Below, in pieces: positions 1,576 to 25,376 of a stretch of 64,000 bases of DNA. Position numbers and translations under genes: made by a program. The stretch is from a virus. The first letter of the stretch is position 1. Each line of letters opens with the position of its first letter. The stretch lies in IMG/VR virus record IMGVR_UViG_3300028780_000001, one strand, 5' to 3'. The notes beneath the pieces are model-generated. The model worked only from the letters and a program-made list of their open reading frames with translations. It made no database searches and had not been told where the DNA came from.

Positions 1576-1894
1576 ATTTCGGGAAGAGCGCGACGAAGCT
1601 CGCATGCGCTTGCGAACGGAAATATTTCGTCAGACGCTAGACCAGTCATCGCGGGGTCGATCCGTCTGGAGATCGTTCCTCGCGATGGGCGATCAGGCTC
1701 TACATACTAGCGTCGGAACCCCACGTAGCGCCAAGGAGAGGTGGCGTGATGCGTATCGCGATACTCGAAAACGCGATAGGGAGATTTGCAAGTCGATTTC
1801 AAGCATTACAAGCCAATGGATGTCAACGTACGTCAAATGCATCGTTGCGCCGCGCAAGATAGATTCATTGCTAGGTCGACCTAGTGGTTTTTAG
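1556..1894 (+). CDS. hypothetical protein (basic)
   Basis: Internal ATG 1556 of ORF 1424-1894. Confidence 0.4.
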   Translation: MINGLLEFREERDEARMRLRTEIFRQTLDQSSRGRSVWRSFLAMGDQALHTSVGTPRSAKERWRDAYRDTRKRDREICKSISSITSQWMSTYVKCIVAPRKIDSLLGRPSGF

Positions 1895-1970
1895 AATTGT
1901 CGACGCGTTTCGATTGATGTAGTATCGGGTCTCGTCGACGTTGTTCGACTTTTATAGAAAGGAACAGAAA
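1871..1970 (+). promoter_or_regulatory. early promoter-leader cassette (variant copy)
   Basis: Palindrome CTAGGTCGACCTAG 1871-1884 + T-run; -35 TTGTCG 1897-1902, 17-nt spacer, -10 TAGTAT 1920-1925; AGAAAGGAACAGAAA 1956-1970 then ATG 1971. Confidence 0.55.
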
Positions 1971-2420
1971 ATGAAAGAATTTCCACTGTCAATACTTCGC
2001 GAAGCAAACATCAAGCGTCTTCCGCAGTTTCGCGATCGCCAAGGAAACCTTGCACACACGCATCCGCAGGGGAAGTGCTGGTCGCCGGATCGATGGATGA
2101 ATGCTGTAACCGGCGAAGTGGGCGAACTTGCTGGCGAGCTTAAAAAGGCTGCGCGCGGTGACTATGGCCTGGATACGCGGTACGCGATGGACCATAACGT
2201 CGACGCCATTCCTGAATCCGTCAAGTTAAAGATCGCTCAAGAAATGGCCGACGTGGTTACATACCTTGATTTGCTGGCGATTCAATTCGACATCGATCTA
2301 GGTCAGGCGATCAAGGATAAGTTCAACATCGTTTCGGGACGCGTCAACTCGTCGATTTGCATCGTCGAGTTTTCCGACGGAACGTTTGTTGTTTCCGACG
2401 GCAACGAAATCCCCTTCTGA
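1971..2420 (+). CDS. MazG-like nucleoside triphosphate pyrophosphohydrolase
   Basis: EVGELAGELKK and EMADVVTYLDLLA helices typical of all-alpha MazG family; ATG directly after cassette leader. Confidence 0.65.
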   Translation: MKEFPLSILREANIKRLPQFRDRQGNLAHTHPQGKCWSPDRWMNAVTGEVGELAGELKKAARGDYGLDTRYAMDHNVDAIPESVKLKIAQEMADVVTYLDLLAIQFDIDLGQAIKDKFNIVSGRVNSSICIVEFSDGTFVVSDGNEIPF

Positions 2421-2429
2421 CCGGTTTAT

Positions 2430-2813
2430 ATGGCCCGCTTTCACTGCCGTTGCCGTCACTGTCGCACGCGTCGGGTGCTGAAGCAACACCCAACCGGGTA
2501 CACGGCTGTTCCGCAGTGCCGCGTGTGTGGAAAACGCTTCTATACGTTCAAAAACAAGCTGGTCGGTCCTATATTCGTCGTCGACAAATGGATGCAGCGC
2601 CGTACGAAGAAGAATCGCGCAATGGGCTGTATGTGCATCGGCTATAAATGGGAAGGTAACATGACCGGAGCCATGCATCGTCGCGGCTCGAAGCAATGCT
2701 GGTTCAGGGCGAACGGCGATCAACGCGTGTACGGTGACTCGGATTATTTTATGGACCCTGACATAGAAAGGATGGATTATGAAAGCAACACAGAAGTTTT
2801 ACGCGCGGCCTGA
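2430..2813 (+). CDS. zinc-ribbon protein
   Basis: CRCRHC...CRVC cysteine pairs at N-terminus. Confidence 0.5.
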   Translation: MARFHCRCRHCRTRRVLKQHPTGYTAVPQCRVCGKRFYTFKNKLVGPIFVVDKWMQRRTKKNRAMGCMCIGYKWEGNMTGAMHRRGSKQCWFRANGDQRVYGDSDYFMDPDIERMDYESNTEVLRAA

Positions 2814-3009
2814 TAAAGCGCCGACGACCGAAGTCGTACCCGTACTCGCGAATCACGCGGTCGACGGCGATCGCGGCGTGAACCTTCGCTTTATCGCCGT
2901 CGGTGAAAGCGCAGCATCCGGCGAAATGCATGTTCGCATGTCGAGCTTCGAAGCGCTGTCGCTCGCGGCTGAAATCGTGCTGAAGGTTGCGCGAGCGAAA
3001 GTGTTCTAA
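2779..3009 (+). CDS. hypothetical protein
   Basis: GAAAGGA RBS 7 nt upstream of ATG. Confidence 0.5.
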   Translation: MKATQKFYARPDKAPTTEVVPVLANHAVDGDRGVNLRFIAVGESAASGEMHVRMSSFEALSLAAEIVLKVARAKVF

Positions 3010-3389
3010 TGCAACGCGCCTTTACGCTAGATGGCTGGGGTAATGGCCCGCTCTTCGCACCTGTCGTGAAGCAAAGACCGCTCGCACGCCCGAAAGGTCT
3101 TCAGGGTACGGTTAGAAGGCGTCAGGAGAGGGGGCGTACGCCTCGCTGGGCCGATCGGAAGGCAATGGCGGCAATCTACCGTCAAGCGCGCCTGTTGACC
3201 CGTCTAACGGGCGAATTATGGGTCGTTGACCATATCGTTCCACTGTTCGGAAAGTACAACGGCGCCCATATCGTGAACGGCTTGCATTGGGAAGGGAACA
3301 TGCGGGTCGTTCATTGGCGTGAAAACGCACTCAAGGGGAATTTTGAATGGCCCGATATGCCGGTTAAACAGTTAGAGTTTTTACTCTAA
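3009..3389 (+). CDS. HNH endonuclease
   Basis: VDHIVPL...NGLHWEGNMRVVHWRENALKGN (His-Asn-His core). Confidence 0.8.
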   Translation: MQRAFTLDGWGNGPLFAPVVKQRPLARPKGLQGTVRRRQERGRTPRWADRKAMAAIYRQARLLTRLTGELWVVDHIVPLFGKYNGAHIVNGLHWEGNMRVVHWRENALKGNFEWPDMPVKQLEFLL

Positions 3390-3480
3390 TTTGGGCGATT
3401 GACGTCGAGAAAGGTCGAGAATACTATTCGTCTAACGGTTCGCAACGTGCGTTCCGATCCACAGAAAGGAATAGAAAGAA
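3372..3480 (+). promoter_or_regulatory. early promoter-leader cassette
   Basis: TTAGAG-N6-CTCTAA 3372-3389 (covers HNH stop); -35 TTGACG 3399-3404; TCGA at 3405/3415; -10 TACTAT 3422-3427; AGAAAGGAATAGAAA 3463-3477. Confidence 0.65.
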
Positions 3481-4149
3481 ATGAAAAAGATCGCTTTCGC
3501 CGTTGCAGTCGCCTTCGCTTCGATCAATGCCCACGCAGACGACTGGATGCCGCGCATTCAGGTCGGTTCCGGCTATCAGTTCTCTAAGGACATGGGCGAT
3601 GGAACCTGGATTCAGCAAGGCGCATTCAACAATCACGAGCAGACAAACGGCGCGGCGTTATCGATTGGACTCACGGGTCGTATCTGGACTAGCGGTCCAT
3701 GGTCGGTCGACTATCACCTTGACTATGTGTATTACGGCCAGCAGTCGGCCAGTGTCGACGGCGTTCCCGACAACCAGTACAACGCGCAAACCCATCGCAT
3801 TGTCGGATATCAGGGTGAACGCCTGAGCCCGTTTAACGGTCAAGGCCACGTTCAAGGTATTCCGCTCACGCTCGATATCGGCTACACGTACAACGGATGG
3901 CGCGTATCGGCTGAAGGCGGCGCTTGGGAGTACTGGAATACGTGGCACGAGTCGCTGTATGATCTGTCGAACCAATGGGTCGACCTTTCTCACGTCACCA
4001 AGCCGCAGACTGGATTCGTCGTTGGCGCTCGCGTCGAGCATGGCCCGCTGTCGCTGTCGTACCGGTACTACCAAGTCAAAGAACAGTGGAATCCGCAACC
4101 GGGACTTGTGACAGGTACTCAAATGCTCATGCTACAGTACAAGTTCTAA
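3481..4149 (+). CDS. outer-membrane beta-barrel protein with signal peptide
   Basis: MKKIAFAVAVAFASINAHA signal peptide, alternating aromatic/Gly strands, C-terminal ...LQYKF. Confidence 0.65.
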   Translation: MKKIAFAVAVAFASINAHADDWMPRIQVGSGYQFSKDMGDGTWIQQGAFNNHEQTNGAALSIGLTGRIWTSGPWSVDYHLDYVYYGQQSASVDGVPDNQYNAQTHRIVGYQGERLSPFNGQGHVQGIPLTLDIGYTYNGWRVSAEGGAWEYWNTWHESLYDLSNQWVDLSHVTKPQTGFVVGARVEHGPLSLSYRYYQVKEQWNPQPGLVTGTQMLMLQYKF

Positions 4150-4170
4150 ACTCTGTAAGGACTGTTTATC

Positions 4171-4380
4171 ATGCCAGAAAGAAAACTTTTGTCGATCTTT
4201 GTCGAGTGGCGCGATGAAAAGGGCGATCGCGATTCGGTCACGTACTACGCCGAAACGCTTGGGGATTCACGCGCCAGGCTTCGTGCTGCGCAACGGGTCG
4301 AGATTTGTCGATCGTCTCAGTTCGTGATCACCGCGTATCGTTTCGAACATAGCGACGGTTCGGTAACCAACGCTATTTAG
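4171..4380 (+). CDS. hypothetical protein
   Basis: ATG ORF; stop TAG lies inside cassette inverted repeat. Confidence 0.5.
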   Translation: MPERKLLSIFVEWRDEKGDRDSVTYYAETLGDSRARLRAAQRVEICRSSQFVITAYRFEHSDGSVTNAI

Positions 4381-4480
4381 AGTCTTTCCTCTAATTTTCA
4401 GGTTCCGTTCGTCGAGATTGTTCGATAAGATTCTTTCACGGTCGACGAACGGCCGGAACCTAGAAAGGAATAGAAAGATC
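4377..4480 (+). promoter_or_regulatory. early promoter-leader cassette
   Basis: TTAGAG 4377-4382/CTCTAA 4389-4394; TCGA at 4412/4422/4442; -10 TAAGAT 4426-4431; AGAAAGGAATAGAAA 4462-4476. Confidence 0.6.
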
Positions 4481-4732
4481 ATGGACAAGATTCGGATTAC
4501 GCCGCTCGACACGAAAAATCTTGACGAAATTACCTTGGTCGATCCACTAATTACCGCGTTTCGCAACGCGATGCGCTTCGGAAACTCCACGGTTATCGCG
4601 ATGATCAAGGGTTCTCCGTACATTTTCTTCGTCGAAAAATCTTCTCTTGGGCTCGACAAGTTTTACGCCCGACTGCTGAATGAGAACGGCGAAATCGTTG
4701 CAATCTGCGACTTCGACAGTTTCGATATGTAA
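4481..4732 (+). CDS. hypothetical protein
   Basis: ATG right after cassette leader. Confidence 0.6.
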   Translation: MDKIRITPLDTKNLDEITLVDPLITAFRNAMRFGNSTVIAMIKGSPYIFFVEKSSLGLDKFYARLLNENGEIVAICDFDSFDM

Positions 4733-4739
4733 ATCAACC

Positions 4740-4770
4740 GGGCGCCGCGAGCGCCCATTTCTTTCGTTTT
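4740..4770 (+). terminator. intrinsic terminator
   Basis: GGGCGC-cgcga-GCGCCC followed by ATTTCTTTCGTTTT. Confidence 0.6.
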
Positions 4771-4782
4771 GGAGAACGAACC

Positions 4783-5076
4783 ATGCGCACTGGACCTAAC
4801 TTCCGATCGCTTCAAATCCTGCTGAAGACCCGCGAGCAGCGTCGCGTCGACGAAGCGTTCGACGAAGCGTTCGACGATGTCACATACGATCGCTCACGCG
4901 CCGTCGAACTGGCGAAACTCGAAGACGCCGAAAAGGCGTATCACCTTTCGGCTCAATTCCGCCTTGACGTGATTCAGGAACTGATCGACGAAGGCCGCAC
5001 ACGCCAGCAAGCGGAAGGCATGACGCGGGATCAAGCGCGCCTGTTCCGTGAAGCACAACGCCTGGGCGCAATGTGA
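4783..5076 (+). CDS. hypothetical protein
   Basis: GGAGAA RBS before ATG. Confidence 0.55.
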   Translation: MRTGPNFRSLQILLKTREQRRVDEAFDEAFDDVTYDRSRAVELAKLEDAEKAYHLSAQFRLDVIQELIDEGRTRQQAEGMTRDQARLFREAQRLGAM

Positions 5077-5576
5077 ACAGCGGCGCAACCATAAGCGAGT
5101 GCGGTCTGTACCGGATGGACCTGTTCCGCATTGTTAGCAAACCAACGGCAGAGCCGATCGAGATAGTTTACGTTGGTGTGAATCCGTCGACGGCCGGTCC
5201 TTTAAATGACGACCAGACCATCGCAAAACTTCGCGAGTTCACGAGGCGATCTGGCGCCTTCAAGTTCTCTATTGTCAATCTGTTCGCCTATCGCTCGACC
5301 GACGTAAAGGAACTCGCCAAGGTTTCGGACCCGGTCGGAAAATTGAACAACAGGGCTATTAGCGATGCGCTCGCGCGCTCGGATATCGTCGTCCCAATGT
5401 GGGGGTCGCGGAACAAGCTTCCGAAGGTTCTATGGCCGCGCATCGATGAAGTTGTCGACGGGATTCGACGCTCGAACAAGCTGGTTATGACGTTCGGATT
5501 CACAAAGACCGGCGACCCTAAACACCCTTTGATGCTTGGGTACGACACCAAGCTAACACTATGGAACCTGGAATGA
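5073..5576 (+). CDS. DUF1643-like protein
   Basis: SECGLYRMDLFR, VGVNPSTAG, IVNLFAYRSTD motifs as remembered for DUF1643; GTGA overlap start. Confidence 0.55.
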   Translation: MNSGATISECGLYRMDLFRIVSKPTAEPIEIVYVGVNPSTAGPLNDDQTIAKLREFTRRSGAFKFSIVNLFAYRSTDVKELAKVSDPVGKLNNRAISDALARSDIVVPMWGSRNKLPKVLWPRIDEVVDGIRRSNKLVMTFGFTKTGDPKHPLMLGYDTKLTLWNLE

Positions 5577-5779
5577 AATTCGCATCTAGCCTTTGGCTCG
5601 TTAGCGTCTATGCTGAAAGATCACACACGAATCCTTCGTGGACGACAAACGTACGAGCGACGAGCAAGCATGGCGCGATCATTTGCGCCATGACCGTTTA
5701 TCAAGGGGCGATTGGTCGCATCGAGTGCGAGCCTTTCGACGGATACGGCGAAGCGTCGCCGGAATGGACGGGCGAATGA
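5561..5779 (+). CDS. hypothetical protein
   Basis: ATG ORF, start uncertain (alt 5573). Confidence 0.4.
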   Translation: MEPGMKFASSLWLVSVYAERSHTNPSWTTNVRATSKHGAIICAMTVYQGAIGRIECEPFDGYGEASPEWTGE

Positions 5780-6003
5780 AGTCCGATCTTAAAGAAGGCG
5801 ACACACCGCCGGAAGACGTTGGCGAGATTTACGCCGACATGCACCTTCAGTTCGAGGCGCGGTATCCGACGGCGTCGCACCGCAAGATCGCGACAATGGT
5901 CGCCGTTCACTATATCGAAGAGTCGTTGCGCGTTACGCGCGAACGTGACTTGCTTCAGCTTGCGTTCGATAACCTGAAGGAGGCGGCGAAGTCGGTCGAT
6001 TAG
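5776..6003 (+). CDS. hypothetical protein
   Basis: ATGA overlap with upstream stop; stop TAG inside cassette repeat. Confidence 0.5.
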   Translation: MKSDLKEGDTPPEDVGEIYADMHLQFEARYPTASHRKIATMVAVHYIEESLRVTRERDLLQLAFDNLKEAAKSVD

Positions 6004-6089
6004 AGTGTTTCCTCTATTGCGCCGGTCGACGCTTGTCGATAGTATTCGTTCACGGTCGCGTGACCGGCGCAACGCAGAAAGGAACAGAA
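6000..6089 (+). promoter_or_regulatory. early promoter-leader cassette (short form)
   Basis: TTAGAG 6000-6005/CTCTAT 6012-6017; -35 TTGCGC 6017-6022; TCGA 6026/6036; -10 TAGTAT 6040-6045; AGAAAGGAACAGAA 6076-6089. Confidence 0.6.
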
Positions 6090-6269
6090 ATGCGTACTTT
6101 TGACGATCATAGCGGCTTGCTCAAGACCCTGGATGAAAAGCACTTCAGCGAGTTTCGCACGAAGCACGGCGCAATCCTGTTCATCGTCGGCTGTGCGCTT
6201 GTAGGCCTCCTGGTTCCCCTGTGCGGTGTTCTGTGCTTCACTAACTGGCTCGACCCGCTCTTTCACTGA
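6090..6269 (+). CDS. small membrane protein
   Basis: ATG after leader; hydrophobic AILFIVGCALVGLLVPLCGVLCF. Confidence 0.55.
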   Translation: MRTFDDHSGLLKTLDEKHFSEFRTKHGAILFIVGCALVGLLVPLCGVLCFTNWLDPLFH

Positions 6270-6272
6270 ATC

Positions 6273-6458
6273 ATGACCGCGAGCCTGCTAGACGACGATT
6301 CAATAAGCCTGGTCCGCAAGTTCGTTGCGGTCTTTGGCGCCGACGCGTACGAACGCCTGTGCGACAAGTTCGCCGGGCAACCGGACGAGCGTTTAATCTC
6401 AACCATGAAAAGGGCCTTGTATGGCGACCCGCAAGAAACCGATCCCCGTACCGATTGA
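6273..6458 (+). CDS. hypothetical protein
   Basis: ATG ORF in train. Confidence 0.4.
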   Translation: MTASLLDDDSISLVRKFVAVFGADAYERLCDKFAGQPDERLISTMKRALYGDPQETDPRTD

Positions 6459-6684
6459 AGACGCGCGCTTCATTGCGCATGGCGTAACCGACCCGGAACT
6501 TACCGAGGCCCGTACGAAGGGCTATTCGGTCGCGTTCCTGTACGAGACGAAGGGTATATCGCTCGACGAATGGCAAAAGGTCTGGTTTGCATTCCGCCCC
6601 TCGAAAGAAGAGGAAATGGAGCGGACCATGTCCGAAGCCGTCCGCACAGGCAACGCCCGCAACCCCGTTCGAATCGAGTTTTGA
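6421..6684 (+). CDS. hypothetical protein
   Basis: ATG ORF in train. Confidence 0.45.
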   Translation: MATRKKPIPVPIEDARFIAHGVTDPELTEARTKGYSVAFLYETKGISLDEWQKVWFAFRPSKEEEMERTMSEAVRTGNARNPVRIEF

Positions 6685-6686
6685 TC

Positions 6687-6905
6687 ATGCCAAACACAAT
6701 CAGACATACCCATCGCCTCATGCGAATCAAAGACGGCCTGTCGTTCGTCGTCGAAATCGAACTGAACATTGATGAAATCGCACAGTCGCTGGCGGCACGC
6801 GCGATCGAGTCGAAGAGTCAGAAGTCGCAAGCCTTGAACGGCGATATCAAATGCAGGGTGATTTCTACCGGCGACGATATCCAGAAGAAGACACTACAGG
6901 TTTGA
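6687..6905 (+). CDS. hypothetical protein
   Basis: Internal ATG 6687 of ORF 6570-6905, 2 nt after upstream stop. Confidence 0.45.
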   Translation: MPNTIRHTHRLMRIKDGLSFVVEIELNIDEIAQSLAARAIESKSQKSQALNGDIKCRVISTGDDIQKKTLQV

Positions 6906-6908
6906 GCC

Positions 6909-7274
6909 GTGGCAAAGGACCGTTCAGACTATCTCTTTACGCGCAAGACCATTCGAGAGAGTATCCCCCTCAGAAGTGGCCTTGAGGCCCGCGAGATAGC
7001 GGCTGTGAGCGGTTACTCGCTGATTTCTGTACGCAGGGTCATTGCAGAACTAAAAGCCGCTGGTGACGTCTTCATCATTAGCTGGAAGGTCGAGCGAGAC
7101 GAGGAAGGATTTCCAACAGGCCAGCCGCGAGCACTTTATGCGCGTGGTGCGAAACGACCGGATGCACCGCGACCGGCGCCGATACCTAAGCCGCTTGTTT
7201 ACAAGCGCTATCGCGGGCGACGTGATCGCAAGCGCATTCACTTACGTTTATTTGGGGATGTCAATGAGTCTTGA
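6909..7274 (+). CDS. winged-helix-like DNA-binding protein
   Basis: REIAAVSGYSLISVRRVIAELKAAGDV helix-turn-helix-like segment; basic tail. Confidence 0.45.
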   Translation: MAKDRSDYLFTRKTIRESIPLRSGLEAREIAAVSGYSLISVRRVIAELKAAGDVFIISWKVERDEEGFPTGQPRALYARGAKRPDAPRPAPIPKPLVYKRYRGRRDRKRIHLRLFGDVNES

Positions 7275-8013
7275 AGAATTGATGAATAGCATGGCCGGAA
7301 ATCTGTTGTTCCGCTCGAACCGGTTCAAGGGAACGGTCATTGCGCTGTGCAATCTGACGACGAACTTCGTCGAGCCGTGGATTGTTGGCGGATACCTCGT
7401 GATCATGGTCGACCCGCAGCACGAGCGCACGTACTTTGACGGCTTCGCGGTGTATCGCATCAAGTCGACGATTCTCGAAGCGCTTCCCTTCCTTCGTCGC
7501 GCCATGATGCAAACGAAAGTCGTTTTCGTCGCTGGCTTTCCGCCTTGCACCGATATGGCGGTGAGCGGGGCTCGCTGGTTCGAGCACAAGCGCAAGCTTG
7601 ACTCGATGTTTCAGGCGAAGGCGGTCGCGGTTGCCGAACAGTGTCGAATGGTTGGCGAGCTATCCGGCGCACCGTACCTTGTCGAGCAACCTGTAAGCGT
7701 GCTATCGCGTGTTTTTGGTAAGCCGCAGCATAGCTTTCATCCATGGCAATACACAGCCTACTGCGACGAGGACAATTACACGAAGCGTACGAACCTATGG
7801 ACGGGCAACGGCTTCGTCATGCCTGGTCCGAGTCGCTTCCCTGATACGCCAGCGCCCGATGACCGCATTCATAAAGCGCCGCCGGGAGAAGATCGAGCGA
7901 ACTTCCGCAGCGCAACGCCAAAGGGCTTCGCGCGAGCGGTCTATTGCCACAATGCACCGCATATTGTCGAAATGCGTCGACTGGAAATGGAAGCTTACCC
8001 GGACTCCCTGTAA
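7258..8013 (+). CDS. C5-cytosine-methyltransferase-fold protein (motif I degenerate)
   Basis: GFPPCTDMAVSG (PC motif), VEQPVS (ENV-like), TNLWTGNGF; Gly-loop position reads LCNLTTNF. Confidence 0.55.
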   Translation: MSMSLEELMNSMAGNLLFRSNRFKGTVIALCNLTTNFVEPWIVGGYLVIMVDPQHERTYFDGFAVYRIKSTILEALPFLRRAMMQTKVVFVAGFPPCTDMAVSGARWFEHKRKLDSMFQAKAVAVAEQCRMVGELSGAPYLVEQPVSVLSRVFGKPQHSFHPWQYTAYCDEDNYTKRTNLWTGNGFVMPGPSRFPDTPAPDDRIHKAPPGEDRANFRSATPKGFARAVYCHNAPHIVEMRRLEMEAYPDSL

Positions 8014-8126
8014 TGGAAGATACCCTCACAACCGCCGGTTGCCTTGTGGTGATCATTCTTGTCTGCTGGATTTTCGCGGAAGGAATAAATCTCTTCGGGC
8101 GCTGGCTGTGGAGCAGGAAACGATGA
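8013..8126 (+). CDS. small membrane peptide (37 aa)
   Basis: TAATG overlap; TTAGCLVVIILVCWIF hydrophobic core. Confidence 0.35.
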   Translation: MEDTLTTAGCLVVIILVCWIFAEGINLFGRWLWSRKR

Positions 8127-8479
8127 GAACGCAAGACCTTGAACGAGCTATTGTCCAGTGTAAGAAATTCTTTGTCAGTCCTAAGCATGGTCGCGCCGTC
8201 TATGAGTACAGCGATATTCGTGAGGTGCTCGCGACGAACAAGGTCGACGCGACAAAGATTACTAACGGAATGATGGGTCGCATGATCGCCAGATTTGGCG
8301 GGTTTGTTCTCCATCAGTCGACGATCGGCGGTAGAACTGTTTCGACGGTTCAGGCCGCGCCGGAACGTATCGAGCAATTGCGCAAGCTGGTGTCGAGCTA
8401 CGTCGACAAGCCGTCAAAAGGGTCGAACGGCGTGCGTTTTGGCGCCGGTCCAAAATACTCAACAAGGGCGAGGTTCTAA
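8123..8479 (+). CDS. hypothetical protein
   Basis: ATGA overlap with upstream stop. Confidence 0.5.
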   Translation: MRTQDLERAIVQCKKFFVSPKHGRAVYEYSDIREVLATNKVDATKITNGMMGRMIARFGGFVLHQSTIGGRTVSTVQAAPERIEQLRKLVSSYVDKPSKGSNGVRFGAGPKYSTRARF

Positions 8480-8697
8480 TGAGTCAGTCGCGCAAGGGTT
8501 CGGCGTTCGAGGCGCTAACCAACATTGCAATCGGAATCGTCGTGTCGATGATCGCGAACGCTACCGTTTTTCCGCTTTTCAACTTCCATCCGTCGGGCTC
8601 GCAAAACTTCGAGATTACGGCAATCTACACCGGCATTTCCTTCGTGCGATCGTACCTGATTCGTCGGATGTGGAATTCCATAGGGACAAGGGTCTAA
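8479..8697 (+). CDS. small membrane protein
   Basis: TAATG overlap; two hydrophobic segments. Confidence 0.55.
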   Translation: MSQSRKGSAFEALTNIAIGIVVSMIANATVFPLFNFHPSGSQNFEITAIYTGISFVRSYLIRRMWNSIGTRV

Positions 8698-8699
8698 TC

Positions 8700-8951
8700 A
8701 TGTATTGGGATTCAGAAGGGGAATGTTTCCGCTACAAGATCACGGAAATTAACTGGTCGGACATCGCCAAGGCGTACGCGCGCTGCAATGCTATCGTCAT
8801 ATCGAACATCGTCGGCTGGACCCAGTACGGTTTTCGGGATATTTCGACCGGCGCGACGATCATGGAGACGCGCATAGGTGTAACCTCCTATCGTGCGCTG
8901 TACGTTGCCATGGTCAAATATGTCGCAAGCAAACAAGGTGCGTCGAAATGA
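8700..8951 (+). CDS. hypothetical protein
   Basis: Internal ATG 8700, 2 nt after upstream stop. Confidence 0.5.
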   Translation: MYWDSEGECFRYKITEINWSDIAKAYARCNAIVISNIVGWTQYGFRDISTGATIMETRIGVTSYRALYVAMVKYVASKQGASK

Positions 8952-9247
8952 ATCGAAGCGAAGCGATGGATATTATTCAGCGGTCGATCAATGACGCGAA
9001 GATGAGCCTTCCCTGTTTTCTGGTCGACCTTGGCAAGGTGTTCGGCGGTGCATACGCAGGAATTGCAATCGTGTTCGCGGACAACGAAGACGCTGCAGCG
9101 CGCCTCGTGAACCAGACATACAAAGACGCCCTTCACCTGAACCCGTCTTCGTTCGGCCAGCACACCAACCGCGAGCGTCAGTGCAAGGCTTCTGATTGCG
9201 ATCGCATGGACTCGTCGGTGCCGGGCGCATTTATCGTAATGGGGTGA
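8948..9247 (+). CDS. hypothetical protein
   Basis: ATGA overlap. Confidence 0.5.
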   Translation: MNRSEAMDIIQRSINDAKMSLPCFLVDLGKVFGGAYAGIAIVFADNEDAAARLVNQTYKDALHLNPSSFGQHTNRERQCKASDCDRMDSSVPGAFIVMG

Positions 9248-9251
9248 TATC

Positions 9252-9434
9252 GTGAAAGAATCGAAACGCGTCGACAACCGGGTATTTTGCGATACATGCA
9301 ACAGCTTGCGATCGAAAGACTGCAGCCGGGCAGATTGCGGTATGCGCATCGAGGTTACAGCCGTTCCAAAGGATGATGTCTACTTTATCGCTGAAGGCTG
9401 CAGCGTAACCACACGTAAGGCCATGCTGGATTAG
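9252..9434 (+). CDS. Cys-rich small protein
   Basis: GTG start; CDTC...CSRADC. Confidence 0.4.
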   Translation: MKESKRVDNRVFCDTCNSLRSKDCSRADCGMRIEVTAVPKDDVYFIAEGCSVTTRKAMLD

Positions 9435-9446
9435 GAAGGTGTCGCG

Positions 9447-9599
9447 ATGGACGATTTCGGAACGCTTATTTCGAACACGCCAGCGTACGCGCACGGCGCA
9501 TGCCTTTGCGGTTTCTTCGTGTTTATGATGTGTGCGGAGTGCAACATGTCCGAACACTTTCACGACGAACTGCTTCGCGCGTACGGTGCGATTGAATGA
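9447..9599 (+). CDS. Cys-rich small protein (50 aa, below ORF-track cutoff)
   Basis: AGGAAGG RBS 6 nt upstream of ATG 9447; read by hand. Confidence 0.4.
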   Translation: MDDFGTLISNTPAYAHGACLCGFFVFMMCAECNMSEHFHDELLRAYGAIE

Positions 9600-9766
9600 A
9601 CCAATCGTACATGTTAATGTTCGTTTTTGGCTTCTTTACCGGGCTCGTTGCTGTCGGATGGTTCATTGTATTTTTGTCGCGGTATCGTGAAGTGCAGTTT
9701 AAGAAATTGGAGAATTCGACATGGGTCGACAAACGATTTGGGATGGTCGAGGACTACCCGAAATAG
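9596..9766 (+). CDS. small membrane protein (56 aa, below cutoff)
   Basis: ATGA overlap; MLMFVFGFFTGLVAVGWFIVFL. Confidence 0.4.
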   Translation: MNQSYMLMFVFGFFTGLVAVGWFIVFLSRYREVQFKKLENSTWVDKRFGMVEDYPK

Positions 9767-9996
9767 GCGACGAGGTTCTGTTCGATACGGCTTCGTCTGG
9801 CTGGTGTCGGGGATTCGTAGACCGCTTCGAAGTTGTTAGAAAGAATCCAAGCCAGTGCAAGCATGATTCGTACGCATGGCGGATCGAAGTGCATATGGTC
9901 TGTCGCGATGCCGGGCGCGAGACGTATCCCATGATGCGTTTTCTTGAGGAAGTGTTTCCGCTTACGCATCAAATATTGATCAAGGCGGAGAAATGA
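9721..9996 (+). CDS. hypothetical protein
   Basis: ATG ORF in train. Confidence 0.5.
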   Translation: MGRQTIWDGRGLPEIGDEVLFDTASSGWCRGFVDRFEVVRKNPSQCKHDSYAWRIEVHMVCRDAGRETYPMMRFLEEVFPLTHQILIKAEK

Positions 9997-15272: not shown

Positions 15273-15298
15273 CTTCGCTTAACAGAAAGGAATAGAAC

Positions 15299-16905: not shown

Positions 16906-17130
16906 ATGTCACAAGCCCAATACCTCGTTGCAGATAAAGCGGTAGAGGCGTATGACGCTTTCGTGTTCACTTCGGTTGGGCGCGAGTTCAATCAGGGCCG
17001 TGCCGACGTTCTGGCTTGGGTTGCTGCGGACGAATGTAAGAAAGCTGCGCGCGACAAGGCGCTGAACCATATGACTCAAATGTATTATCACGAGCAGGCG
17101 AAAAACTTCGTCGCGATCATTGCGGATTAA
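16906..17130 (+). CDS. hypothetical protein
   Basis: ATG after leader. Confidence 0.6.
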   Translation: MSQAQYLVADKAVEAYDAFVFTSVGREFNQGRADVLAWVAADECKKAARDKALNHMTQMYYHEQAKNFVAIIAD

Positions 17131-17220: not shown

Positions 17221-17255
17221 AAAGGCCCGAAGCGCTTATGACGCGACGGGCTTTT
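17221..17255. terminator. bidirectional terminator at convergent junction
   Basis: AAAGGCCCG...CGGGCTTTT: A-run 5' and T-run 3' of a GC stem. Confidence 0.5.
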
Positions 17256-17272
17256 GTGCTTTCAGACTCGCG

Positions 17273-17294
17273 CAAAGTTTATGCGCATAAAGTC
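17273..17294 (-). promoter_or_regulatory. GACTTTATGCGCATAAACTTTG element (inverted copy)
   Basis: 22/22 identical to 15840-15861 but on minus strand, immediately after stop of 17300-17827. Confidence 0.5.
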
Positions 17295-17937: not shown

Positions 17938-18837
17938 TTAGCTGGCATTTTCAGAAGGTGTTTCGCCTCTCATTTTCGCCTCGAACGCGATCGCTTCTGG
18001 CGAACCAGGCGAAGGGTGTTTGAAAGCTTGCGGATTGCCCTCGCTCGAACCCGGATCGCGGTCCAGTTCGTCGCGATAGAAATCGTCGAGCGACTTCGTT
18101 GCCTTCGTCGTTCCCGCCTCGTCGACGACCGTAATTCCGTAGATCACCTGAAGCGAATCGATAGCCTTGGCGCGAACGGTCTCGCGCACAAACGGATTGT
18201 TGAGCAGCGACAACCAATGCCAAATGGCGTGCTTGACCGAAAACATGCGCGAAAGCGGCGTGGCGCCGAAGCGCTTGGCGAACACCTGGCGATAGACGAT
18301 GTTGTGCTCAAGCGCTTCGATGCGCGCGAACAGGTGCATGTCGCCGTAGTCGGTGCCAAAGACGCGGATGAATGCCCGCTCTGGATTCCAACCCATCACG
18401 CGGTAGTCGGCGTAGTCGCTGATCAGTCCGATATTGTCGTTGGCAAACCCCTGATCGCGAAAGGCTCTGGCGGGCTGCACCTCACTCGTGACGATATCGC
18501 GCTCGCGGTTCTCGTCCATCCATTCGTCGAGGTTTTTGGCGACATCGCCGCGAGTCGAATCGTTAAGCGCCTTGACCGCAGCTTCGAATTCTCCCGGCGA
18601 GCGCGTGTCGTGGACTTCCCAGTTATCCGGCTTCTTGTCGGGCATGCGGGATTCACGCTTTGTCCGGGCTGCAGACTTAGCCGCGACCTTCAAACGCTCT
18701 TCGTGCGTATCCAGTGCGGGATTGACCGGCTTTATGCGGTTCGGTGCCTTGGGCTTGGCTGGCGTGATGCGTTTAGCCGCTGCGCTCGTACTGGCGTTCT
18801 TTCCGGGCTGCTTGGGCGTCTTTGGGCGTTCGGTCAT
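17938..18837 (-). CDS. hypothetical protein with basic disordered N-terminus
   Basis: 299-aa ORF; no recognisable motif. Confidence 0.55.
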   Translation of the reverse strand: MTERPKTPKQPGKNASTSAAAKRITPAKPKAPNRIKPVNPALDTHEERLKVAAKSAARTKRESRMPDKKPDNWEVHDTRSPGEFEAAVKALNDSTRGDVAKNLDEWMDENRERDIVTSEVQPARAFRDQGFANDNIGLISDYADYRVMGWNPERAFIRVFGTDYGDMHLFARIEALEHNIVYRQVFAKRFGATPLSRMFSVKHAIWHWLSLLNNPFVRETVRAKAIDSLQVIYGITVVDEAGTTKATKSLDDFYRDELDRDPGSSEGNPQAFKHPSPGSPEAIAFEAKMRGETPSENAS

Positions 18838-21186: not shown

Positions 21187-21191
21187 ATCGA

Positions 21192-22193
21192 CTACGCTCC
21201 GATTCTTTCAGACAGTAATCCTGTCATTTTCAATGTTTGTCGACCGTTCTCGAATGTCTTAGAGATTTCACGAAGCAAATCTCGACCGTGAATTTCTTCG
21301 ATTCCTATATCACTTCCCGTTAAGTACTTACCCTCGTTCATTACAACGGTGACGCCGGAAGTACTTATTACCGATTTACTATTCGGAGATTCGAGCCACC
21401 CCAAAAACACGTTACGGGTGAAAACTTCAGTCATTCCGCTGTCGATAAGATGCGGCCCATCGAAGTCGATTTCGTAACGGTCGGATTTATATAAACGCTT
21501 GATTCTCCGCTCCACGTCGGCGCATAGTCGACCATCTTCGAAATGAACAAGCGATCGAAGCGGCATAGATAATCCTTCGATCGCACCGAATTGAGAGGCT
21601 CTATTTGCCGGTTCGAAGTTAGTAATTCCAATCTTGAAATTTCCAGGACGAATAATCCCACCTTCACTCAGGAATTCACGAGAGTACAGGAACCCTGGAA
21701 TGTCTGGATTGAACCCTCCCGTACCGCGCTCCATATGGACGCATATCTCGTCAAGCCACCTATTTCTCCACGCAGCGTCGTACGCACTCATTGACCCCTT
21801 CTTAAATTCGTTCCGAGTCCTACACCCCTTAGCTTCCAACCTGCACGTTTCTAATGTCCATGTCGTACGGACCTTTTCCATATGAGCGCATATCTCGTCA
21901 AGCCAACCATTATTCCGCGCGGCTTGGTATATACCACTTGACCCCTTCTGAAATTCGTACCGCGTCCGATACCCCTTAGCTTCTGACTTGCACCTTTCGA
22001 AGGTCCACGCCGTACGGACCTTTTCCATATGAGCGCAGATTTCATCAATCCACCTATTTCGAAAAGCGGCTTGGTATGTACCACCTGACCCCTTCTGAAA
22101 TTCGTACCGCGTCCGATACTTCGCCGCTTCTGACTTGCACCTTTCGAAGGTCCATTTTGCCGGGAGACCCATCCCCTCAAATCCTCGCGTCAA
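21192..22193 (-). CDS. T5orf172/GIY-YIG-like homing-endonuclease-like protein with 3 N-terminal repeats
   Basis: C-terminal GFLYSREF...FKIGITNFEPANRASQF; three 49-aa WTFERCKSEA...ICAHMEKVRT repeats. Confidence 0.6.
   Translation of the reverse strand: MTRGFEGMGLPAKWTFERCKSEAAKYRTRYEFQKGSGGTYQAAFRNRWIDEICAHMEKVRTAWTFERCKSEAKGYRTRYEFQKGSSGIYQAARNNGWLDEICAHMEKVRTTWTLETCRLEAKGCRTRNEFKKGSMSAYDAAWRNRWLDEICVHMERGTGGFNPDIPGFLYSREFLSEGGIIRPGNFKIGITNFEPANRASQFGAIEGLSMPLRSLVHFEDGRLCADVERRIKRLYKSDRYEIDFDGPHLIDSGMTEVFTRNVFLGWLESPNSKSVISTSGVTVVMNEGKYLTGSDIGIEEIHGRDLLREISKTFENGRQTLKMTGLLSERIGA
21714..22154 (-). repeat. 3 x 147-bp in-frame tandem repeat
   Basis: Units 22154-22008, 22007-21861, 21860-21714; long identical nucleotide runs between units 1 and 2. 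Confidence 0.8.
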
Positions 22194-22521: not shown

Positions 22522-23726
22522 TTGACAATCTCCGAATATTCAGATAATGCAAAGTCCTGTTGCTGGCGGTTGCGGATTTCCAGCAGGTCGGTGATGTAAC
22601 GTATCACGATGTAATCGACAAATGTCGACCAGGTGCGTTTGTTGGTCTTGCGACAGGTGTCATGCGCGCAACCGAACACGTAGTCGTATTCGGCGCCGGG
22701 AATGCGATCGCGGAAGTAGGCGCCTCCGGTATCGCCGTTAGAGTGCTCGTCTCCCCACGGGCATTGAATGCGGTACTTGCCGCTCATGTTCTGGACGACG
22801 GCTCCGTTCGAGCCCTCACCCATTTGCATGTCGTCAAGGATTTTGACGGCCAGCTTCAGCCAATAGTGATTGAACCAGTCGTCGATATCGGCGTTGGCGA
22901 GTTCAGATTCGCTTCGGACCTTTGCGACGGGCTTGACCACTGAAAATCCAAAGCGTGCTGCGATATGAGCAATTCCATACCGTCTCGCATAGTCTGCACA
23001 AACCAGTCGAGCTCGATACGGATTTTCTCCCGCTGCTCCGGTGTCATTTGATAAGGGATACTTAAGGGTTCCATCAGGCTTACGTTTGTTATTGATCCCC
23101 ACGGGCATCCGGCCATAGCGCGAGACGTCTCGAATCGTGGTGTCTCCGCCCTTTTTGACAAGTACTCCCGCGACGAATCCGGTAAGGAACGCTTTAAACT
23201 GAACCATGTCGGCGCAAGGCTCATCCAGGAAGTACCAGCATTGATAGTTGTTGGGGGAAGTCTCAACGATGGCAGTAGGCTCAAGTACTCGTCGAATATC
23301 GTCAAGTCCGAGTCCGCCTTTGGACCCAGTGCCTGTGCCGACATCGTCAACCATGAGTGCAAGCCCATGGCCGAAAGACTGTTCGCCGCGCCAGTAGCGC
23401 ATTTGTCCGGTGCGCGGGTTGGGTGTTTTGATGGACGATGAAATGCACGCATAGCAGTTGTCGTTCCCATTGATGTACTTGCCGTCTGACCACGCGACCG
23501 GCCACCATCCGGCATTCAGTTTCTTGCCGTCCGCGTCGACCTGTACCGTTGCTTCCCTGGCATAACCAACCATCACCCGCTCTTCTTCGGGTATGCCCCT
23601 ACCGAGTTCTCGAAGAAACTCTTCGGCCATGGCTACCTGTTCACGCAAGTTCAATTTCTGGTCCCTTTCTAGTCTTTCGTCGACAAGTGGCGATCTTACG
23701 CTACCGCTTTTCGGTAAGCAATACAT
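22518..23726 (-). CDS. primase-polymerase-like protein with C-terminal Cys/His cluster
   Basis: LMVDDVG, VETSPNNYQCWYF (AEP-like by eye), CPWGDEHS...CAHDTC; ORF extends to 23891 but that would overlap the divergent gene and promoters. Confidence 0.45.
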   Translation of the reverse strand: MYCLPKSGSVRSPLVDERLERDQKLNLREQVAMAEEFLRELGRGIPEEERVMVGYAREATVQVDADGKKLNAGWWPVAWSDGKYINGNDNCYACISSSIKTPNPRTGQMRYWRGEQSFGHGLALMVDDVGTGTGSKGGLGLDDIRRVLEPTAIVETSPNNYQCWYFLDEPCADMVQFKAFLTGFVAGVLVKKGGDTTIRDVSRYGRMPVGINNKRKPDGTLKYPLSNDTGAAGENPYRARLVCADYARRYGIAHIAARFGFSVVKPVAKVRSESELANADIDDWFNHYWLKLAVKILDDMQMGEGSNGAVVQNMSGKYRIQCPWGDEHSNGDTGGAYFRDRIPGAEYDYVFGCAHDTCRKTNKRTWSTFVDYIVIRYITDLLEIRNRQQQDFALSEYSEIVK

Positions 23727-23756
23727 AGTTGTGAAAAATTCCCCAACTTTTACCGG

Positions 23757-23847
23757 TTGAAATCTCGACGGTTCTCGACTACTATCCATATGCCCGGTGT
23801 GCGCCGGGTCCGCTTGTTGCGGTGAACACCAAAAGAAAGGCTTAGAA
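23757..23847 (+). promoter_or_regulatory. cassette-type promoter + leader for helicase operon
   Basis: -35 TTGAAA 23757-23762, 17-nt spacer with TCGA 23765/23775, -10 TACTAT 23780-23785; AGAAAGGCTTAGAAA then ATG 23848. Confidence 0.6.
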
Positions 23848-25047
23848 ATGTCAAATATGAGCGACGTGCCCGGCAAGACCTTTTCGTTCAACGAAGGCCA
23901 GCTAGAAGCAATCCGCCTGATAAAGAAGTGGTATAGCGATTACGTATTGGGGCGCACGACGAAGCAGTGTTTCTTCCTGAACGGCGACGCGGGCACGGGC
24001 AAGACGTCGGTCGCGAAGGCTGCTGCGATCGAGTGCATGGGTGGCGAGTCGATGCTGTACCGCGTCAAGTTCATTGCGCCGACGGGTAAGGCTGCGTCGC
24101 GGCTGCGTCAGAAAGGATGTGCGGGCGCCGGTACGCTTCACCAGTTCGTTTATCGCGTGCTGGGTGAAGACGAAGAGGGCGACCCGCAATTTATGGAGAA
24201 GGTGAAGCACGACGAGAATCCGTCGCTCGTGGTGTGTGATGAGATTTCGATGATCACCGCATACGACTTTGGTACTGTCAGGCGTCGCGGTATTCCCATC
24301 CTGCAACTGGGTGACCTGAAGCAGGTACCGCCGGTCAAGGGTACGCCGTGCGTGACGCATCAGGATGCCGATTACACCCTGACCGAGACCATGCGCCAGG
24401 TAGATGAAAACGGCCAGCCCAAGCCATTGTCGAACATTATCCGGGCTGCGATGTTTCTGAGCGAAGGCAAACAGTTGCCGTGTCGCGAGTATGACGACGT
24501 CCAGGTGCGCGCCGGTATGCCGCCAATCGCCGATCTTCTGGCGCACGTCGACGAGAACGCCCAAATCCTGTGTTCGTACAATTCGACTCGCGTCGGCATC
24601 AACACCGACATCAGGAAGGCGCTTGGATTTGACGGCCCCACGCCGCAAGTGGGAGAAAAGGTAATGTGCTGGTTTAATCAGCATGGCAAGAATTTCATGA
24701 ATGGTGAGCAGGGGATCGTGCTGGGGTATCGTGAGCCCGACACGGAAGAGTGCGCCGAGGGCGACGCGCCGCAAATGCTAATGCTTACACTGCGCTCGCT
24801 CACCGACGGCCGTGAGCGTACGGTAAAGTTCAACCCCCTATCGTTCGACGCGGACGACGCGGTTGCCAAGGAAGCGCTCAAGGCGCCCGGTGGATTCCAG
24901 TTCGGGTATTGCTGCACGGCACACAAGGCCCAAGGTTCTGAGTGGGATCGCGTACTCGTGATCGAAGAGCGCATGGGTGATTACGCCAAGTTGGGCTACA
25001 CAAAGGCTACACGGGCTGCGAAGAATCTTCGCTGGTATCGGCCATAG
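23848..25047 (+). CDS. Dda/RecD-like SF1 DNA helicase
   Basis: GDAGTGKTS Walker A, VVCDEISM, TAHKAQGSEWDRVLV. Confidence 0.8.
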   Translation: MSNMSDVPGKTFSFNEGQLEAIRLIKKWYSDYVLGRTTKQCFFLNGDAGTGKTSVAKAAAIECMGGESMLYRVKFIAPTGKAASRLRQKGCAGAGTLHQFVYRVLGEDEEGDPQFMEKVKHDENPSLVVCDEISMITAYDFGTVRRRGIPILQLGDLKQVPPVKGTPCVTHQDADYTLTETMRQVDENGQPKPLSNIIRAAMFLSEGKQLPCREYDDVQVRAGMPPIADLLAHVDENAQILCSYNSTRVGINTDIRKALGFDGPTPQVGEKVMCWFNQHGKNFMNGEQGIVLGYREPDTEECAEGDAPQMLMLTLRSLTDGRERTVKFNPLSFDADDAVAKEALKAPGGFQFGYCCTAHKAQGSEWDRVLVIEERMGDYAKLGYTKATRAAKNLRWYRP

Positions 25048-25078
25048 TCTGTACTGACGATTCTTGATCAACCCAGCA

Positions 25079-25114
25079 CGGCCCGAAGTGTAGAACAGAA
25101 CCCTCTTCGGGCCG
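25079..25114 (+). terminator. stem-loop (terminator-like, weak U-tract)
   Basis: CGGCCCGAAG 25079-25088 pairs CTTCGGGCCG 25105-25114. Confidence 0.45.
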
Positions 25115-25125
25115 CTATTCAAGGA

Positions 25126-25347
25126 ATGAAAGTGTCGCTAAAATTTCTCAAGGTAAACCCGGAAACGGCAAACATTACCGCTGGCATCGCATTTATTTGT
25201 GCTGTGTTTGCGTTCTCGTTCGGCTGCTGGTACCTGGTGCTATTCAAGCTGTTGCCGTACCTGATTCATCACCTGTCGTTTAGCTGCGCGGCTAGAGTAA
25301 ATCCTCTAGTTACTTTCTCGACGATTGTCGATAAGCTTCGTCAATAG
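25126..25347 (+). CDS. membrane protein
   Basis: AAGGA RBS; two hydrophobic helices; 3' end reads through the next cassette. Confidence 0.45.
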   Translation: MKVSLKFLKVNPETANITAGIAFICAVFAFSFGCWYLVLFKLLPYLIHHLSFSCAARVNPLVTFSTIVDKLRQ

Positions 25348-25376
25348 AATCGACCCAACACAGAAAGGAATAGATC
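25292..25376 (+). promoter_or_regulatory. early promoter-leader cassette (variant CTAGAG/CTCTAG)
   Basis: CTAGAG 25292-25297/CTCTAG 25304-25309; TCGA 25318/25328; -10 TAAGCT 25332-25337; AGAAAGGAATAGA before ATG 25377. Confidence 0.5.

Follow-up and report, generated by a model that had tools for sequence, protein, structure and literature searches.

A probable PeSL-like promoter-leader cassette repeated through the early region of an uncultivated Pbunavirus/BcepF1-like myovirus

Promoter-early stem-loop (PeSL) cassettes were described in the T4-type phages RB49, phi1, PST and nt-1 (PMC2839356, PMC4122927), and a full-text literature search found them discussed almost only for T4-type and giant phages. 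A second described system is that of Pseudomonas phage 14-1, in which 26 sigma70-like promoters were mapped by ONT-cappable-seq, several of them being active in reporters; this phage relies on host RNA polymerase, and Pbunavirus phages encode no RNA polymerase of their own (PMC10914365). Here we analyzed a 64-kb stretch of IMG/VR virus record IMGVR_UViG_3300028780_000001 (hereafter the window), which represents most of a ~73.5-kb genome of an uncultivated, Pbunavirus/BcepF1-like myovirus, and in which an element of about 100 nt is repeated in front of early genes. We consider it probable that we are dealing with a PeSL-type composite regulatory cassette, which would make each early block a self-contained expression unit and would at the same time provide a portable patch of homology for gene exchange.

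The ten copies listed in a preliminary description of this DNA were all found on the + strand and directly 5′ of the corresponding ATG codons (positions 1971, 3481, 4481, 6090, 11116, 13290, 14951, 16906, 23848 and 25377). With up to two mismatches allowed, the ribosome-site motif AGAAAGGAAYAGA occurred 12 times in the window versus 1.3 expected, and TTAGAG-N6-CTCTAA nine times versus 1.0 expected. The pattern STCGAS-N3-6-TCGA-N0-3-TAnn[AC]T matched eight times on the + strand, always within cassettes, and once on the − strand. As an independent test, an nhmmer profile was trained on 16 cassettes taken from related genomes only, the window being left out. This profile recovered seven full window copies with E values between 3.7e-9 and 2.5e-23: 14848-14948 (E 2.5e-23), 13191-13291 (1.6e-21), 4377-4478 (1.4e-19), 16798-16907 (2.2e-19), 6000-6091 (2.7e-15), 3372-3479 (1.2e-10) and 25293-25374 (3.7e-9). 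Weaker, divergent copies were detected at 1898-1971 (E 0.002) and 23737-23849 (E 0.004), and there was no further convincing match on either strand of the window and none in the late region. All ten copies lie within 1-25.4 kb, a region of small genes of unknown function. The same genome carries two further copies left of the window, within a stretch of 9.7 kb; the first early promoter, beside the terminase gene, is one of them, and the other precedes a gene encoding a 168-residue DUF6011 protein (both within 5551-6161 of L146).

Many dispersed copies of ~100 nt with inverted repeats might also be expected from a selfish miniature mobile repeat, similar to miniature inverted-repeat transposable elements or repetitive extragenic palindromes, that had spread through intergenic regions and was merely promoter-like. 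However, every copy is oriented as its gene and runs from the stop codon of the upstream gene up to a fixed distance before the ATG, with an apparently functional Shine-Dalgarno sequence included. Reading of the copies noted no terminal inverted repeats or target duplications, and neither the late region nor the non-coding gaps of the other strand contain copies, which makes a mobile repeat very improbable.

In the window, the + strand carries early genes at 1-17.1 kb and genes for nucleotide metabolism and replication at 23.8-42.1 kb, and the − strand carries replication genes at 17.3-23.6 kb and, from 42.2 kb, structural genes. From 17.9 kb on, its gene order is that of 14-1 and other Pbunavirus phages, with protein identities of 26-62%, but not a single gene in 1-17.1 kb has a homologue in 14-1, and a megablast comparison of positions 1-12000 with GenBank phages gave no match. 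The closest named relatives of the tail sheath are distant (BcepF1, 61%; Luteibacter phage Pluto, 59%). More than 40 metagenomic contigs carry proteins that exactly match those of the window, and homologues of the protein encoded at 17938-18837 are present, at 69-96% identity, on metagenomic contigs of 42-75 kb. Seven of these contigs (with labels within L137-L143), chosen through the homologues of that protein, were used as relatives. The cassette is carried by all seven, giving a total of 36 cassettes in eight genomes, the window genome included. It was not found in the remoter relatives 14-1, BcepF1 and IMG/VR contigs whose Dda helicase is 57% identical. Searches of IMG/VR with two cassette DNA patterns, the ribosome-site motif and the promoter core, gave chance single matches only, and bacterial genomes scanned with a neighboring protein and with the outer-membrane-protein-like gene gave no host match.

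Comparison of the window with its relatives revealed that gene content changes at the cassettes. In 16 window-versus-relative comparisons the cassettes themselves were 69-95% identical, and identity in the adjoining 150 nt fell to background (~50%, the level of unrelated sequence) downstream in 15 of the 16 cases and upstream in 12. Seven of the 11 insertion, deletion or replacement gaps relative to L137, the closest relative (~90% identical where alignable), abut a cassette edge, at the initial base of the hairpin or at the ATG. Furthermore, 38 of 138 homology endpoints fell within cassettes, a six-fold excess over the 6.3 expected, and the segment 14882-14949 has a counterpart in L143, with 97% identity, whose neighboring genes are unrelated.

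A particular case was observed at the place of the 16906 cassette, where L139 carries two cassettes around one extra gene of 77 codons. The window, L137 and L138 have one cassette at that place, as does L142 to judge by its matching leader. In the single cassette, the sequence just 5′ of the hairpin matches the first cassette of L139, and the leader and ribosome site match the second. The L139 arrangement thus shows the apparent footprint of recombination between two cassettes, and the same topology has been described for PeSL-mediated insertion and excision (PMC2839356). Segment-by-segment identity tables of the window's own copies gave no clear chimerism. With about 100 nt shared, homologous recombination within or between genomes would be able to insert, delete or replace blocks while leaving their expression intact.

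The core of the cassette has the appearance of a sigma70-type promoter. When 22 copies were aligned on this part, TCGA-N6-TCGA-TATgAT-TCG was invariant or nearly so, and the consensus corresponds to a putative promoter with a (G)TGACA-like −35 box, a spacer of 17-18 nt and a TATGAT-like −10 box, the latter directly abutted by the second TCGA. A generic sigma70 scan picked four of the cassette promoters (3481, 13290, 14951 and 16906), with 9-10 of 12 positions matched. The TAnnAT form of the −10 box, which the preliminary description had attributed to each copy, does not hold at 25377, where the box is TAAGCT.

Conservation around the predicted start covers more than 20 nt and is accompanied by hairpins; T7-like and N4-like polymerases typically have long conserved promoters, and those of the N4 virion polymerase are hairpins. 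We nevertheless regard dependence on a phage-encoded RNA polymerase or sigma factor as scarcely credible. Neither the window nor the 9.7 kb to its left contained a polymerase-sized unexplained open reading frame (ORF), and the hexamers and their spacing are of sigma70 type. In addition, the hairpins, which have 6-nt loops and lie 45-60 nt upstream, are unlike N4 promoters, and the gene order is that of Pbunavirus phages, which have no RNA polymerase gene (PMC10914365).

Upstream of the promoter, most cassettes carry the hairpin TTAGAG-N6-CTCTAA, generally followed by ATTT, with a T-rich tail in most copies. In five window copies the TAG or TAA of a hairpin arm is the stop codon of the upstream gene (3389, 4380, 6003, 11056 and 13194). 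Loop sequences vary freely, reverse-complement versions included, and the stem, in which two of the six pairs are G-C, is followed by 2-7 T in the next 9 nt. An inverted repeat had been reported for every copy; the 1971 copy has a different upstream hairpin, CTAGGTCGACCTAG, and the 23848 copy is devoid of the TTAGAG hairpin. Hairpins of other sequence at the same place, as in the 1971 copy, were also found in some copies of L141 and L143. A CRP-like activator site centered at about −43.5 or −53.5 was considered for the upstream palindrome and not adopted, since some copies have another hairpin sequence there and mispairs lean to G-U. GC-rich hairpins with T runs are present at the ends of other gene blocks (4738-4772, 15236-15262, 17222-17262, 25078-25125 and 42150-42195), so that conventional terminators also exist in this phage, in addition to the weak TTAGAG hairpin. 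A perfect palindrome, TTTATGCGCATAAA, was found at three places (15257-15270, 15843-15856 and 17278-17291) versus 0.12 expected, each time in an intergenic gap just after a terminator-like hairpin, and also beside a cassette hairpin in L142; it looks like an operator or other regulatory site.

The pairing of the TTAGAG hairpin bears on an alternative in which the cassette acts at the RNA level, within long read-through RNAs whose hairpins are processing or stabilizing sites and whose promoter-like hexamers are secondary; RNase III sites lie between the early genes of T7. Over 28 copies with six pairs each, 154 pairs are Watson-Crick, nine are G-U, two are A-C and three are other combinations, so that mispairs lean to G-U on the sense strand, and the outer pair of the copy at 25292 is changed on both sides. 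On the contrary, many of the G-U pairs were inherited within one orthologous set, which leaves about five independent events versus two. The upstream hairpin is also too weak for a good terminator, as an RNA-level role would allow, but RNA processing would need neither the exact register of −35 box, TCGA pair and −10 box nor the near-consensus hexamers seen in 36 copies.

Downstream of the promoter the cassettes contain a structured leader. With the start set 7 nt after the −10 box, 31 of 34 leaders folded better than shuffles (mean z −2.0), and the leader stem mostly begins at a distance of 0-3 nt (overall 0-5 nt) from the predicted +1, with several unrelated stem sequences across copies. Dinucleotide-preserving shuffles of nine window leaders gave z values from 0 to −2.1, eight of the nine being below zero (−0.15 to −2.1). 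The type B leader, which precedes the helicase gene, has two hairpins, with 12 pairs and one compensatory change across five genomes. The conserved leader sequence ATTCGYTYRCGGTCGACG, previously described as shared, is present in four or five of nine copies and missing from the rest.

In about nine of the 22 aligned copies, promoter spacer and leader form an inverted repeat of 8-13 bp that encloses the −10 box and the predicted start, the whole region having a predicted folding energy of about −20 to −29 kcal/mol. The arms of this repeat differ between copies, orthologous ones included (CCGCA/TGCGG vs CCGTG/CACGG). Strong predicted hairpins with differing arms are what an RNA-level cassette would lead one to expect, but the long repeat is limited to those nine or so copies. 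Moreover, at the gathering score the Rfam 15 collection matched only the tRNA-Glu at 35920-35991 in the window, with no family for any part of the cassette. Altogether, we find it improbable that the cassette works mainly through RNA.

The cassette ends with AGAAAGGA, an A-rich spacer and the ATG, with AGAAAGGA located 6-19 nt (mostly 7-10 nt) before the ATG. The ribosome-site motif reported just before the ATG is inexact at 13290 and 23848. The sequence AGAAAGGA would predict a host 16S rRNA with the 3′ tail ...CCUCCUUUCU-3′.

A further feature of the promoter spacer is the TCGA-N6-TCGA pair, which is invariant in all 36 cassettes, with six intervening bases that vary. In the window, TCGA recurs at exactly 10 nt 54 times versus 4.2 ± 1.9 in dinucleotide shuffles (~13-fold), and every other spacing from 4 to 44 nt occurs about 10 times. 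The excess requires the full TCGA on both sides, CG-N8-CG alone being enriched only 1.1-fold. These 54 sites span positions 283 to 61124, with no strand assigned; 49 of them lie below 40200, and triples are present at 29138/29148 and 34689/34699. About 40 of them are located outside the cassettes, mostly inside early and middle genes. Early and middle DNA has 1.0-1.4 pairs per kb in each of the eight genomes, and the density falls to a background of 0.14-0.33 per kb in the structural (late) regions of the window and two relatives. Intragenic pairs at orthologous positions were found in the RepB-like primase gene (six of six genomes) and in the other primase gene (five of seven). No such excess was seen in 14-1, BcepF1 or the IMG/VR relatives.

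Three interpretations of the pair were discarded. As a small hairpin it would have complementary bases next to the TCGAs, which is rarely the case, and there is no instance of TCGAC-N4-GTCGA. A consensus signal for transcriptional pausing (G-10, Y-1, G+1) does not agree with the 1.1-fold value for CG-N8-CG, and as a marker of gene starts the pair gave 37% versus 30% in the null. The flanks of the pairs hint at a direct rather than an inverted repeat. The simplest interpretation of the pair is a recognition site for a sequence-specific DNA-binding factor, either of the clade or of its host. As a tentative extension, it is possible that TCGA-N6-TCGA is recognized by a clade-specific regulator, perhaps phage-encoded, present in every early-promoter spacer and about once per kb in early and middle DNA, that would time the whole non-structural half of the genome, for example through shut-off or compaction. 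In that case the cassettes would be the promoter-embedded subset of a genome-wide system of binding sites.

These observations lend weight to an alternative in which the cassettes are mainly targets of a phage or host protein that reads TCGA-N6-TCGA, either shutting all early promoters off together or being needed to switch them on, so that the sequence of the cassette exists for this protein. The invariance of the pair in 36 of 36 spacers, its strict sequence requirement, the confinement of the excess to early and middle DNA of the clade and the conservation of some intragenic sites all favor it. So does the presence, in the same genome and behind a cassette copy, of the gene for the DUF6011 protein; DUF6011 is the Pfam family annotated on gp12 of 14-1, which was reported to bind the alpha subunit of RNA polymerase (PMC10914365). 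On the other hand, the −35 and −10 boxes are close enough to consensus for sigma70 alone, about 40 of the 54 sites are intragenic and not enriched near gene starts, and Pfam scans of 30 small proteins gave no DNA-binding domain able to read the pair. Such an alternative would also leave the hairpins, the leader and the ribosome site unexplained, and it is compatible with a PeSL-like cassette rather than exclusive of it. As the main explanation of the cassette we consider it rather unlikely.

The suggestion made earlier that conservation beyond the hexamers requires an extra recognizing factor is accordingly retained only in part. The stop-codon hairpin, the 5′ leader stem-loop, the 8-nt Shine-Dalgarno sequence and a role as recombination joint would suffice for most of the additional conservation as stacked functional modules, with no added factor needed, and the invariant TCGA-N6-TCGA, which sigma70 recognition leaves unexplained, is the one part that speaks for an additional factor. 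The accompanying notion of a modular promoter-leader unit conserved well past both hexamers is supported by the alignments.

For the PeSL-like cassette that we favor, the following sequence of events can be proposed. A weak, AU-rich stem-loop around the upstream stop codon, usually with a short T run, would end the previous unit, perhaps as a leaky attenuator or as a 3′-end or processing hairpin. A host sigma70-type promoter with the invariant TCGA pair within its spacer would then start transcription ~7 nt after the −10 box, and the RNA would open almost at once with a stem-loop protecting its 5′ end. In roughly 40% of copies, the promoter spacer could serve as the alternative partner of this stem's 3′ arm, and in read-through RNA the −10 box and start would then sit in the loop of an 8-13-bp hairpin. 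Finally, the 8-nt Shine-Dalgarno sequence AGAAAGGA and its A-rich spacer would direct strong translation of the first gene. The TCGA pair would be the site of a candidate DNA-binding factor layered over the cassette. We infer the activity of the promoter, the position of the start, the role of each hairpin and the mechanism of recombination from this anatomy.

Several points weigh against this interpretation. The upstream hairpin is weak, with −3.9 to −8.9 kcal/mol versus −12.6 to −19.5 kcal/mol for the GC-rich terminators of the window, and some copies are without a T run, which makes termination doubtful. Promoter activity and start sites are predictions, and the folding scores of single leaders are modest once dinucleotides are preserved. 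Regarding gene exchange, part of the endpoint excess consists of matches between non-orthologous cassettes, and illegitimate recombination followed by selection that kept only the cassette would also place junctions at its edges. Lastly, the picture of sigma70 plus modules does not explain the TCGA pair and its genome-wide excess.

The anatomy of the individual copies was defined as follows, all of them being on the + strand. The 13290 copy (13191-13289), which matches the sigma70 consensus at 10 of 12 positions, serves as the reference. It comprises the hairpin at 13191-13208, the −35 box GTGACA at 13217-13222, the TCGA pair at 13227-13240, the −10 box TATGAT at 13241-13246, a predicted +1 at ~13253, a 5′ leader hairpin at 13253-13269 and the Shine-Dalgarno sequence at 13276-13283; an 11-bp inverted repeat, GCGTCGACCGC/GCGGTCGACGT, surrounds the −10 box. 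The 14951 copy (14848-14950) has its hairpin at 14848-14865, a −35 box TAGACG, the TCGA pair at 14884-14897, the −10 box TATTAT at 14898-14903, a leader hairpin CGGTC/GACCG and the Shine-Dalgarno sequence at 14932-14939. For the 16906 copy (16798-16905), with the hairpin at 16798-16815, the −35 box is either TTGCGA (16-nt spacer) or TTTGCG (17 nt), and is followed by the TCGA pair (16833-16846), the −10 box TATGAT (16847-16852), a leader hairpin GGGTTGC/GCGACC and the Shine-Dalgarno sequence (16889-16896).

Similar arrangements were found further to the left. In the 4481 copy (4377-4480), the hairpin (4377-4394) contains the upstream stop TAG, the TCGA pair is at 4412-4425, the −10 box TAAGAT at 4426-4431 and the Shine-Dalgarno sequence at 4462-4469, and an 11-bp inverted repeat, CCGTTCGTCGA/TCGACGAACGG, encloses the −10 box and the predicted start. 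The hairpin of the 6090 copy (6000-6089), located at 6000-6017 and also including the upstream stop TAG, abuts the −35 box TTGCGC (6017-6022); the TCGA pair (6026-6039), the −10 box TAGTAT (6040-6045), within the inverted repeat GCGCCGGTC.../...GACCGGCGC, and the Shine-Dalgarno sequence (6076-6083) follow. In the 3481 copy (3372-3480), the hairpin at 3372-3389 has TAA as the upstream stop, with the −35 box TTGACG at 3399-3404, the TCGA pair at 3405-3418, the −10 box TACTAT at 3422-3427, a leader hairpin and the Shine-Dalgarno sequence at 3463-3470. The gene behind this copy (3481-4149) encodes a 222-residue, secreted, outer-membrane-protein-like product with a signal peptide and the C-terminal ...YKF typical of outer-membrane beta-barrels; Pfam gave no match for it, and bacterial genomes gave no close one. 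The gene and one small neighbor lie between two cassettes, and it thus looks like an acquired accessory gene.

The remaining copies depart from this anatomy to different degrees. The cassette of ATG 25377 (25292-25376) has the hairpin CTAGAG...CTCTAG at 25292-25309, the TCGA pair at 25318-25331, the −10 box at 25332-25337, an unstructured leader and the Shine-Dalgarno sequence at 25362-25369. The divergent 1971 copy (1881-1970) starts with its variant hairpin at 1881-1894 and a T run, followed by the −35 box TTGTCG (1897-1902), TCGA-N6-TCGA (1900-1913), the −10 box TAGTAT (1920-1925), a leader hairpin GTCGA/TCGAC accompanied by another TCGA pair (1935-1948), and the Shine-Dalgarno sequence AGAAAGGA (1956-1963). 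The copy at 11116 (11028-11115, type C), read from the sequence, had been taken for a truncated one and is instead rearranged, with the order TCGA pair (11028-11041), hairpin (11053-11070, TAG being the upstream stop), second hairpin and ribosome site. Its second hairpin, GGCGT...ACGCC, has TACACT in the loop, and its Shine-Dalgarno sequence lies in CAGAAAGGAATCAGA. Orthologues of this copy are present in L137-L140, and the stem sequence of the second hairpin differs in each of L138-L140.

The divergent type B copy precedes the Dda-like helicase gene with ATG 23848 (23757-23847) and consists of a −35 box TTGAAA, the TCGA pair at 23765-23778, the −10 box TACTAT at 23780-23785, the two leader hairpins and the Shine-Dalgarno sequence AGAAAGGC at 23834-23841; orthologues were found in five relatives. 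The − strand promoter of the RepB-like primase gene (23630-23760) is the divergent partner of this cassette. The primase start is probably a TTG located ~27 nt 5′ of the ATG at 23630; this TTG comes after AGAAAGGGACCAGAAA and a promoter (TTGCTT, 17 nt, TAAGAT) without the TCGA pair. In the neighboring replication region, the − strand ORF 21192-22193 contains three tandem units of 147 nt (21730-22170; the second and third 80% and 69% identical to the first), and its protein has internal 49-residue repeats.

Partial modules, likewise on the + strand, were also found. A looser relative before ATG 327 (251-326) has TTGCAC, 16 nt and TAGAAT (273-278), with the TCGA pair downstream of the −10 box (283-296) and a weaker Shine-Dalgarno sequence, GAAGGA. 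The ribosome-site module alone is present before ATG 15299 (AGAAAGGAATAGAAC, 15284-15298), with a GC-rich terminator and the palindrome TTTATGCGTATAAA 5′ of it; before ATG 36035 (AGAAAGGATCAGAAATGT, 36017-36034), just after the tRNA-Glu gene; and before ATG 37053 (AGAAAGGAATCAGAAATT, 37035-37052). The tRNA-Glu gene (anticodon TTC, 35920-35994) is flanked by a helicase gene and by one whose ribosome site is of the cassette type.

Comparison with known systems places parts of the cassette beside several of them. Stem-loops at the 5′ terminus stabilize mRNA against RNase E, as in the ompA leader, and the hairpin that 31 of 34 leaders have within 0-5 nt (mostly 0-3 nt) of their predicted 5′ end would be of this type. 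The operators of phage 434 have the form ACAA-N6-TTGT (4-6-4), and those of P1 C1 are spread over the genome. The TCGA pair is similar in that two 4-bp half-sites, separated by one helical turn, make up a site of 14 bp that overlaps the core promoter and is present many times per genome; unlike these operators, most of its sites are intragenic and their flanks hint at a direct repeat, and the analogy applies to the TCGA pair only. The phasing of TCGA at 10 nt, genome-wide and confined to DNA of the early and middle regions, provides a clear signature, open to testing, of a candidate factor not yet described.

Among phages closer to the window, BcepF1 (NC_009015, L148) has a repeated early cassette of its own, consisting of AAAAGTGTTGAC, 17 nt and TAnnnT, with the −10 box in the loop of an inverted repeat or terminator, often a T run, and then a conserved CGGAGATAAC ribosome site and the ATG; examples lie upstream of 6268, 7430, 11163, 12582, 16219 and 29925. 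We know of no published description of these repeats. They differ from the cassette of the window in sequence, do not match the cassette profile, and have neither the TTAGAG hairpin nor the 10-nt excess of TCGA. Phage 14-1, with the same genome architecture as the window, has one pair of 79-nt promoter-leader repeats, 80% identical (665-743 and 4437-4515 in L135), upstream of two − strand early genes, but shares no early gene with the window and has neither a multi-copy cassette nor the TCGA excess. The BcepF1 cassette and the 14-1 repeat pair suggest that the design is common in the wider group without having been named there.

The closest likeness is to the PeSLs. As in these, a repeated intergenic unit of ~100 nt contains the upstream stop in an A/T-rich stretch, sigma70-like −35 and −10 boxes, a stem-loop, a Shine-Dalgarno sequence and the ATG, and the stem-loop adjoins or overlaps the promoter (upstream hairpin in 28 copies, −10 inverted repeat in about nine of 22). 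The stem-loop of T4-type PeSLs is most often around the −10 or start position, which is where the inverted repeat lies here (PMC2839356). The concentration in a region full of small genes of unknown function, the location of insertions, deletions and replacements between related phages at cassettes, and the correspondence of a cassette pair around one gene to a single chimeric cassette in a relative are likewise shared, so that every structural and comparative feature of PeSLs that can be tested from sequence is found here. The differences are the unrelated lineage (Pbunavirus/BcepF1-like, 73 kb, not T4-type) with no sequence similarity, the AU-rich TTAGAG/CTCTAA stem in place of the GGGG/CCCC of PeSLs (PMC2839356), the presence of up to three distinct stem-loops per cassette, and the invariant TCGA-N6-TCGA of the spacer with its genome-wide enrichment. 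Promoter and terminator activity and mini-circles have been demonstrated for PeSLs, and the present cassette is known from sequence alone. Given the unrelated lineage and sequence, it would be an analogue of PeSLs and not a homologue. The idea of cassettes that drive early genes and act as joints for gene swapping would thereby be extended to an unrelated, environmentally common group of phages, and, as soon as the host is known, engineering could make use of a compact and portable unit of expression. The BcepF1 cassette, analogous yet unrelated, suggests that this design arose more than once.

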